Virus record (IMG/VR): IMGVR_UViG_2681813320_000011
Length of the DNA: 5,959 nt
Direction: 5' to 3' (one strand)
Source: a virus
Lineage: Duplodnaviria > Heunggongvirae > Uroviricota > Caudoviricetes
Made by a program: the position numbers and the translations under genes
Notes under the pieces: model-generated
What the model was told of the DNA's origin: nothing
The model's database searches: none
Seen by the model: the letters and a program-made list of their open reading frames with translations, nothing else
Part shown: one piece after another, positions 3,732 to 3,878 of the stretch
Numbering within the stretch: position 1 is the stretch's first letter
Layout of the letters: each line of letters opens with the position of its first letter

Positions 3732-3878
3732 TCACCCCACCAGTCCCGATAACGTCAGGACTCGCCAGGCGGTGGAAAAGAAAATGGCAACCAGCATGAC
3801 TAAAAATGAAATGCCGACAAGTACACAGAGGCTCTTCACCAGCGTTATGAGTTTATCTGATATCATTAGCCACCCCAT
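3732..3878 (-). CDS. Candidate 48-aa single-pass membrane protein, translationally coupled to the upstream antirepressor-like gene
   Basis: ATG at 3878-3876 overlaps the upstream gene's TGA stop (TGATG). Frame is open for 48 codons to TGA at 3734-3732, 7 nt before the Rz ATG. Product [48 protein letters not shown] has one approximately 24-residue hydrophobic helix. Below the ORF-track cutoff; found by hand. Confidence 0.35.

Follow-up and report, generated by a model that had tools for sequence, protein, structure and literature searches.

The minus strand of a 5,959-nucleotide stretch of viral DNA (IMG/VR record IMGVR_UViG_2681813320_000011; hereafter the window) carries the late lysis region of a lambdoid prophage of the Shiga toxin (Stx) type. 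Between its antirepressor-like gene (ant) and the i-spanin gene Rz lies a small open reading frame (ORF), here called B (3732..3878, minus strand), which is, on sequence evidence, very probably a selected protein-coding gene. B and at least three further families, unrelated to it and to each other and named A, X and C, are mini ORFs with a single transmembrane (TM) helix, which recombination shuffles in the spacer that separates the endolysin gene R from Rz. At least one such ORF stands directly before Rz always in cassettes with a 933W-type R, as well as in some Salmonella cassettes, and never in cassettes with an R21-type R. With respect to the original prediction, which was made from the letters of the window alone, the new elements are a different conserved start of B, a link of B to Rz and not to ant, and this slot rule.

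B consists of 48 codons from the ATG at 3878..3876 to the TGA at 3734..3732 and belongs to PHROG 4906. Its ATG shares the A of the ant stop codon (TGA, 3880..3878), which results in a 1-nt overlap in the form TGATG, and seven bases (AAGAGAG, 3731..3725) separate its stop codon from the ATG of Rz at 3724; both the overlap and the gap had been described earlier and are read directly in the window sequence. Presence of a TTG one codon upstream of the ATG leads the automatic ORF listing to give 49 amino acids (aa). The neighbours are also as described previously, with Ant matching the Pfam family P22_AR_N (E = 1.4e-45) and Rz matching Phage_lysis (E = 1.5e-39). The product had been portrayed as one TM helix with short charged flanks, and our analysis agrees with this. 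AlphaFold2 models it as a single helix spanning residues 2-43 (mean pLDDT 87.5), the only charged residues are D8, K9, K15 and R39, and the best 19-residue Kyte-Doolittle mean is 2.8. Sequence and AlphaFold2 model together delimit a charge-free TM core at codons 16-38 (3765..3833, minus strand).

The start of B needs more attention. A second in-frame ATG (M5; 3864..3866, minus strand) lies within one codon of the conserved start of the relatives, most of which begin with 'MSDK' at the codon that corresponds to window codon 6, and homology between the window and cassettes without ant runs from 3863 on into Rz. Both ATGs of the window are preceded by Shine-Dalgarno (SD)-like motifs on the minus strand, AAGGCGG in the last ant codons (3883..3889) for the ATG at 3878 and GGGGTGG (3870..3876) for M5, each with an anti-SD duplex of -7.1 kcal/mol. 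Because the two motifs are equally strong, the product in the window is 48 aa or 44 aa in length, or both are made. At the ant-less loci, which make up about 40% of the B loci, B begins with 'MSDK' behind a strong SD of its own, AAGGGAGG. Two groups of ant-linked alleles carry a stop within codons 2-4 (ATG GAG TAG... and ATG GAG TGG TGA...), so that only the downstream ATG at the M5 position is usable in them, and an in-frame 3-nt indel is seen among alleles in the N-terminal extension. The translational coupling of B to ant that had been claimed is therefore present in the window allele but lineage-specific. Interruption of the frame in related cassettes, which had been named in advance as refuting the original prediction, is found only in the N-terminal 4-5 codons, while the core is uninterrupted. 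A dual-start holin/antiholin switch of the lambda S type was considered and rejected because the four extra residues between M1 and M5 (MGWL) are uncharged and have no basic residue, unlike the extensions of S107 or S21-71, and because some alleles carry a stop there.

Comparison of 172 loci that carry B places it firmly in front of Rz. Its downstream neighbour is Rz at 165 of these loci, another mini-ORF at three and a gene for a 60-aa lipoprotein at two. Upstream, Ant is found at 94 loci, family A (a membrane ORF of 48-63 aa, PHROG 1115/4493) at 72 and family X (a membrane ORF of 31 aa, PHROG 6632) at three. These counts (Rz 165/172 against Ant 94/172) show that B is tied to the slot before Rz and not to ant. 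Hence, the description of B as wedged in together with the antirepressor-like gene does not hold, as B belongs to a pre-Rz position that it shares with unrelated mini-TM ORFs. The possibility that B simply co-travels with ant was rejected on the same grounds, as A or X takes the place of Ant at 75 of the 172 loci, and in Salmonella Ant is followed by A.

To describe the slot independently, cassettes were also sampled via the endolysin gene irrespective of B, with RrrD as the query for the R21 type. All 77 R21-type cassettes have a 4-nt overlap of R and Rz and none has a mini-ORF (0/77); the K-12 prophages DLP12 and Qin likewise show the R/Rz overlap and no mini-ORF. Cassettes with a 933W-type R always have a spacer of at least 297 nt, which opens with an intrinsic terminator. 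Among the 72 sampled 933W-type cassettes, the architectures were X-B-A-C-Rz (17 loci), an X- or C-like ORF followed by Rz (L270-type, with a 298-nt spacer; 15), Ant-B-Rz (13), A-C-Rz (11), A-B-Rz (10), X-B-Rz (5) and, at one locus, R-A only with no Rz hit; B itself is present in 45 of the 72. At all 65 sampled 933W-type loci where the start of Rz could be recognised, the distance from the end of a hydrophobic ORF to Rz is 1-7 nt, and in spacer-bearing cassettes generally some ORF always ends 1-13 nt before it. Thus separation of R and Rz always goes with a mini-TM ORF abutting Rz, and overlap of the two never does. Operationally, we define the class as ORFs of at most 65 aa with one hydrophobic helix, located in the endolysin-Rz spacer on the same strand, packed against their neighbours and ending at most 13 nt before Rz or before another such ORF. 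With a gap of 7 nt in the window B falls within this definition, and A, X and C share the slot.

The occupants of the slot differ in sequence. Family A reads '...VTDDISRALAFAIKWVAVGxAVSPMLYGLAKLVIALKS' (48-63 aa, PHROG 1115/4493), family X 'MISQLPNWKFLLVWSIPFLWVVSQLIVAIKG' (31 aa, PHROG 6632) and family C 'MSAELIRAMAFAIRIVAIAVLVWAIRWW' (28 aa). That A and B might be paralogues was rejected, the hhalign probability being 3%. Hybrids of A and C and of X and C occur, and the starts and stops of the mini-ORFs overlap or lie less than 15 nt apart; examples are seen at L163 2615..3061, L154 2306..2848, L270 3158..3331, L285 2264..2416 and L120 2746..3012. In Salmonella prophages family A stands 10 nt before Rz, for instance in the company of Phage_holin_2_3 and a lysozyme, of holin_3_1 and a GH19 enzyme, or in the order S-R-Ant-A-Rz.

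The position of B raises the possibility that it is mainly a leader for translational coupling, in which translation up to the Rz start is what matters, through the Rz SD, melting of structure and re-initiation. Such a leader would restore the R-Rz coupling that was lost on insertion of the spacer, and its peptide would have little function or none, or its hydrophobic helix would only bring the mRNA to the membrane, the site of Rz and Rz1 insertion. Several features of the slot fit this explanation: the 4-nt R/Rz overlap of the ancestral-type cassettes (all 77 sampled, as well as DLP12 and Qin), the constant presence of an ORF ending 1-13 nt before Rz in spacer-bearing cassettes, and the interchangeability of unrelated peptide families. 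Moreover, the last codons of the slot ORF form the SD of Rz. In B this is GGGGTGA, composed of the last Gly codon and the stop (3732..3738, minus strand; duplex -6.8 kcal/mol, located 7 nt upstream of the ATG of Rz), and in C and in the X-like ORF of L270 it is TGGTGGTGA. However, all of the families that fill the slot encode a TM helix, and mere coupling does not need the selected core of B (P ~0.002-0.006, see below) or the conservation of C18, V19, V21 and F25 across synonymous changes. Furthermore, B is kept where other mini-ORFs stand between it and Rz (X-B-A-C-Rz, 17 loci) and where no Rz follows. We therefore regard coupling alone as a rather improbable account of B.

Selection on the peptide itself is indicated by several lines of evidence. 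B occurs as 15 DNA alleles at 159 IMG/VR loci, and its core reading frame is open in all 15. Every B allele has an SD, with an anti-SD duplex of -7 to -11 kcal/mol, whereas the ATGs on this strand of the window together average -3.5. For deep allele pairs, which differ at 21-33% of nucleotides, the ratio of nonsynonymous to synonymous changes (dN/dS) is 0.29-0.58 in frame, and the two shifted sense frames give values of about 1 and contain stops. The strongest evidence comes from a neutral simulation at the observed divergence, in which the preserved state was defined as an open frame, absence of charged, polar and proline residues from positions 11-33, and equal hydrophobicity. All four lineages show this state, which arises with P = 0.002-0.006 per lineage pair, and the hydrophobic helix is thus not explained by neutral drift. 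At the residue level, C18, V19, V21 and F25 have been kept through synonymous changes, and the E. coli set (alignments A1/A2) shows no or almost no variation in the N-terminal half of the core, LCV[LI]VGISF. Neither G22 nor I23 varies in that set; both are altered in the divergent L165 and L167 alleles.

It has also to be considered whether B could be a chance ORF or a decaying remnant, for instance of a spanin or holin N-terminus, which has been kept by recent common descent. The family is limited to prophages of Escherichia and Shigella, which recombine frequently, the DNA of the 5' half of B is nearly identical among most E. coli alleles, one allele is recombinant within B, and rare truncated or frameshifted variants are present in the protein database, all of which would suit such an origin. 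However, a HMMER profile search of 1.84 billion representatives returned 28 hits, all of them from the B mini family (some being truncated, frameshifted or over-extended calls), and no distinct longer parent family. Matches in Pfam and PDB are absent, and even at 27-33% nucleotide divergence the ORF is still there with its SD and its hydrophobic core, also in a different type of cassette. A chance ORF or a remnant, be it of a spanin or a holin, is accordingly a very improbable explanation for B. The recombinant allele, L081 (3001..3144), is identical to the window type over its 5' half and of the ant-less type over its 3' half, and its mixed halves point to homologous recombination breakpoints inside B. 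The central DNA of B (CTCTGTGTA.TTGTCGGCATTTCATTTT) is nearly invariant among the E. coli alleles, and the 3' half co-varies with the type of the Rz leader.

An ORF of 71 aa on the plus strand (3772..3987) overlaps B and the end of ant. This antisense frame is open in all B alleles, with dN/dS of 0.28-0.56, and was rejected as a gene because its start, end and length (9-80 aa) are unconserved and it has no consistent SD. The open antisense frame is a mirror artefact of the hydrophobic sense ORF, and calls on the basis of dN/dS should be made with caution for hydrophobic mini-ORFs in general.

No family of known function accounts for B. Window B matches no Pfam family at E <= 10, and the other alleles give only sub-threshold noise; NCBIfam and PDB gave no match even at permissive thresholds, and none of B, Ant, A, X and C has a PADLOC hit at E <= 0.1. 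Judged as a holin, B has a TM domain (TMD) but no match to a holin family and a C-terminal tail of at most 10 residues, in which the window allele has one Arg and most relatives have none. Judged as a spanin, it lacks a lipobox, a match to Phage_lysis and any residues past the helix. A structured RNA or known RNA family was rejected because no Rfam family matches in the window. Likewise, a type I toxin or defence system was rejected, as neither a PADLOC hit nor a promoter-like site nor an antisense RNA family was found and as B is packed between ant and Rz.

The original prediction had placed B in the late operon as a genuine small single-TM gene outside the canonical S-R-Rz/Rz1 set, and this is borne out by its retention in the slot. 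We tentatively propose, with somewhat less than even confidence, that B is an accessory late protein of the inner membrane which tunes lysis through helix packing. No match to a sigma-70-like promoter consensus is present on the coding strand of the B region, and a terminator-like hairpin lies past R; therefore B is presumably made only from Q-antiterminated late transcripts, which also carry S, R and Rz/Rz1. Its predicted product is a bitopic inner-membrane microprotein of 43-48 residues with one membrane-crossing helix. The net charge is +1 to +2 in the N-terminal flank and 0 to -1 in the C-terminal tail, and by the positive-inside rule the N-terminus (~10-15 residues) would be cytoplasmic and the tail (at most 10 residues) periplasmic. 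The conserved half of the TM segment in the E. coli alleles is C18-V19-x-V21-G22-I23-S24-F25, with small residues at positions i and i+4. Because this half is conserved and a soluble domain is absent, B most likely acts within the bilayer, where it might pack via a face formed by C18, G22 and S24 (S26) against a TM segment in some other late protein of the membrane. By its position, the neighbouring i-spanin Rz would be the best candidate for such a partner, with the TMD of the pinholin or the SAR (signal-anchor-release) segment of R as alternatives. B would then modulate the timing or the efficiency of envelope breach without being essential for it, and ribosomes that end on B would probably re-initiate on Rz.

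Several observations weigh against this proposal. B is absent from 27 of the 72 933W-type cassettes and from all R21-type cassettes, and is therefore not required for lysis; the R21-type cassettes, DLP12 and Qin included, have a pinholin and a SAR endolysin without B, which likewise implies that it is no essential lysis component. Purifying selection is only moderate, with dN/dS above 1 for the L167 lineage against its near relatives, and by dN/dS alone the sense frame of B is not separable from one antisense frame. The filling of the slot by several unrelated peptides could mean that position or translation counts for more than the peptide sequence. The literature search turned up no expression or phenotype data for B. 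Finally, the divergent member P0059 (44 aa; PHROG 4906, 2e-19) is found in a phiP27-like cassette (L165/L166 700..3400) with no recognisable Rz/Rz1 or u-spanin. The gene order there is two canonical holins, a soluble GH108 endolysin, an ANT-family gene (PF03374), X, B, a lipoprotein gene and HNH. The lipoprotein gene (60 aa, lipobox LLVGC, PHROG 7528) follows B via a TGATATG overlap. As this cassette is without Rz, pinholin or SAR endolysin, it argues against any of these being a strict partner of B. In phiP27 itself (L171) the lipoprotein gene is present, and the ANT gene, X and B are absent.

Such a cassette would be less surprising if B were a late membrane 'moron' apart from envelope disruption, which binds a protein of the host inner membrane in the manner of AcrZ or MgrB, or of superinfection-exclusion and 'anti-Kronos' proteins. 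B would in this case protect the progeny or alter host physiology and merely ride in a recombination hot spot of the cassette. The R-Rz spacer does take foreign modules (two Ant families, a terminator and four mini-ORF families), and many cassettes dispense with B. However, exclusion genes are usually expressed in the lysogen, which is unlikely here given the lack of a sigma-70-like promoter match and the terminator-like hairpin upstream, and a PADLOC match is absent. Moreover, at 165 of 172 loci B lies immediately (1-13 nt) before Rz, and Salmonella uses the same slot, which would be unexpected for a free-standing moron. We consider the moron explanation unlikely.

Precedents for small accessory TM factors of lysis are gp25 and Lcc6. 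The gp25 releasin of phage Mu (DUF2730) is an accessory of a SAR endolysin that also stimulates release of the 933W SAR endolysin; it has 99 aa, an N-out/C-in topology and a functional acidic cytoplasmic domain of 73 aa (PMC9239132). It shares with B its small size, a single TMD and a gene location close to those of endolysin and spanin. In contrast, B is a bare helix of 43-48 aa, predicted to be N-in, which has no DUF2730 match and has its own pinholin in the cassette. Lcc6 of the Shewanella phage LambdaSo is a 65-aa single-TM protein of a system with pinholin, SAR endolysin and Rz-Rz1; it is essential for lysis, is required for pinholin-dependent depolarisation, has a cytoplasmic tail of 43 aa and is encoded far from the lysis genes (bioRxiv 10.1101/2024.01.23.576932). 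Lcc6 shows that a system of this kind may employ an additional small membrane factor. By description, B differs from Lcc6 in being tailless, inside the cassette and dispensable in many cassettes. Since both gp25 and Lcc6 act via cytoplasmic domains and B has none, B belongs to neither family.

Other comparisons are equally partial. The antiholin-like LysA of phage P2 resembles B in its position between endolysin and spanin genes and in a non-essential role in timing of the kind proposed here for B. LysA is a larger, multi-TM protein, and S107 and S21-71 are isoforms of the holin itself. AcrZ, MgrB, KdpF and CydX are single helices of less than 50 aa that bind a larger membrane protein within the bilayer; these are chromosomally encoded, with their own promoters and known partners, whereas B is a late gene of a phage. 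Hok, TisB and class III holins are also small hydrophobic single-helix peptides, which are able to depolarise the membrane, but B has neither a promoter nor an antisense RNA of its own, no Rfam hit, no charged C-terminal domain and no match to a holin family in Pfam.

Extending the proposed role to all occupants of the slot is a broader step, and we consider it doubtful. The bare-helix spacer ORFs (B, A, X and C) might constitute an unrecognised class of interchangeable TMD-only components in the lysis cassettes of 933W-type phages and of Salmonella lambdoid phages, which would act on the i-spanin or holin in the bilayer, or bring the Rz/Rz1 message to the membrane, and so set the last steps of lysis and the release of Stx. 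If true, the timing or efficiency of these last steps, and hence the release of Shiga toxin, would be set by such ORFs. Shiga toxin exits the cell via phage-mediated lysis, so any tuner of a 933W-type cassette affects both toxin release and phage yield. Surveys of lysis cassettes have dealt with S, R and Rz/Rz1 only, and gp25 and Lcc6 show that small membrane proteins can be hidden lysis factors. Should the peptide of B prove to be functionless, it would still be a clear translated coupling ORF or a moron slot, and the annotation would need fixing.

B is already present in databases as a hypothetical protein, and its family is narrow, being confined to Escherichia and Shigella. Window B matches the PHROG 4906 profile with E = 5.4e-30 (residues 1-48 on positions 2-49 of 49), and the product is identical to RefSeq WP_000539792.1 and to the ORF of phage 933W. 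WP_000539792.1 and WP_001280932.1 are annotated as 'hypothetical protein', as is B in many GenBank records of Stx phages and in RefSeq via the NCBI pipeline PGAP, and PHROG 4906 has no function label. In the records of 933W, VT2-Sakai and Ss-VASD B is unannotated. The 933W and VT2-Sakai reference annotations thus show an empty gap of 153 nt, called intergenic in 933W, at the place of a conserved gene. The literature search found no paper that names the protein accessions or PHROG identifiers of B, and B is not mentioned in the surveys of Stx phages and spanins. Of 5,426 complete E. coli genomes, 643 carry B (median copy number per genome 4), and so do 276 deposited phage genomes, all of Escherichia or Shigella and including 933W, VT2-Sakai and phi24B; the A-B version of the cassette is found in at least 1,014 further genomes. 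A wider taxonomic spread was rejected, as a scan of one genome per species yielded only a contig of 328 bp labelled Xanthomonas pisi (L084, NZ_JPLE01000251.1). This contig carries ant-B sequence of E. coli Stx phages (93% protein identity) and is almost certainly a contamination of the assembly.

The remaining features of the window support its assignment to the late lysis region of an Stx-type prophage, and the 1.5-kb stretch from ant through B to Rz is 98-99.6% identical to many Stx1- and Stx2-converting phages. All of the following are on the minus strand. The region begins with a class II holin of the S21 type (pinholin family; 5651..5866, Pfam Phage_holin_2_1), followed by a DUF1327/YdfR gene (5302..5646, Pfam DUF1327) between S and R. 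The latter is conserved in lysis cassettes, including that of K-12 Qin, and is missing from 933W itself. The 933W-type lysozyme R (4718..5251, 177 aa, Pfam Phage_lysozyme) has an N-terminal hydrophobic segment of the SAR type. About 100 nt past its stop lies the terminator-like hairpin, AGAGGCACC-GTAAT-GGTGCCTTT (4586..4612, identified by sequence), at whose place the ant-less relatives have a textbook intrinsic terminator (AAAACCCCGTTTGTTGGCAGCAAGCGGGGTTTTGTTTTT; L163 2508..2545). The hairpin marks the start of the inserted R-Rz spacer and B its end; a terminator at this place within the lysis cassette, between R and Rz, is presumably passed only by Q-modified polymerase. A GTG-start ORF of 53 aa in the R-ant spacer (4479..4640) matches PHROG 16173 (2.8e-19), overlaps the hairpin and lacks an obvious SD, and may be a remnant rather than a gene.

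Ant (3878..4447, P22_AR_N and ORF11CD3 domains) is the optional upstream neighbour of B, and Rz (3257..3724) is its near-constant downstream neighbour. The ORF of the o-spanin lipoprotein Rz1 is embedded in Rz (3298..3489), with a putative start assigned by its lipobox and by how related records annotate it. Beyond Rz follow an 80-aa ORF, a ynfO-like gene, a gene for an HNH endonuclease and terS. The 80-aa ORF directly past Rz (3009..3251) is annotated in relatives as a hypothetical protein of 74 aa and matches only positions 96-172 of the 291 positions of PHROG 2571; in 933W its place is taken by bor on the opposite strand. In one prophage copy of E. coli O157:H7 PV15-279 (L164 1..1668), the insertion sequence IS1203 splits the lysozyme gene R, and ant, B and Rz downstream of it are intact.

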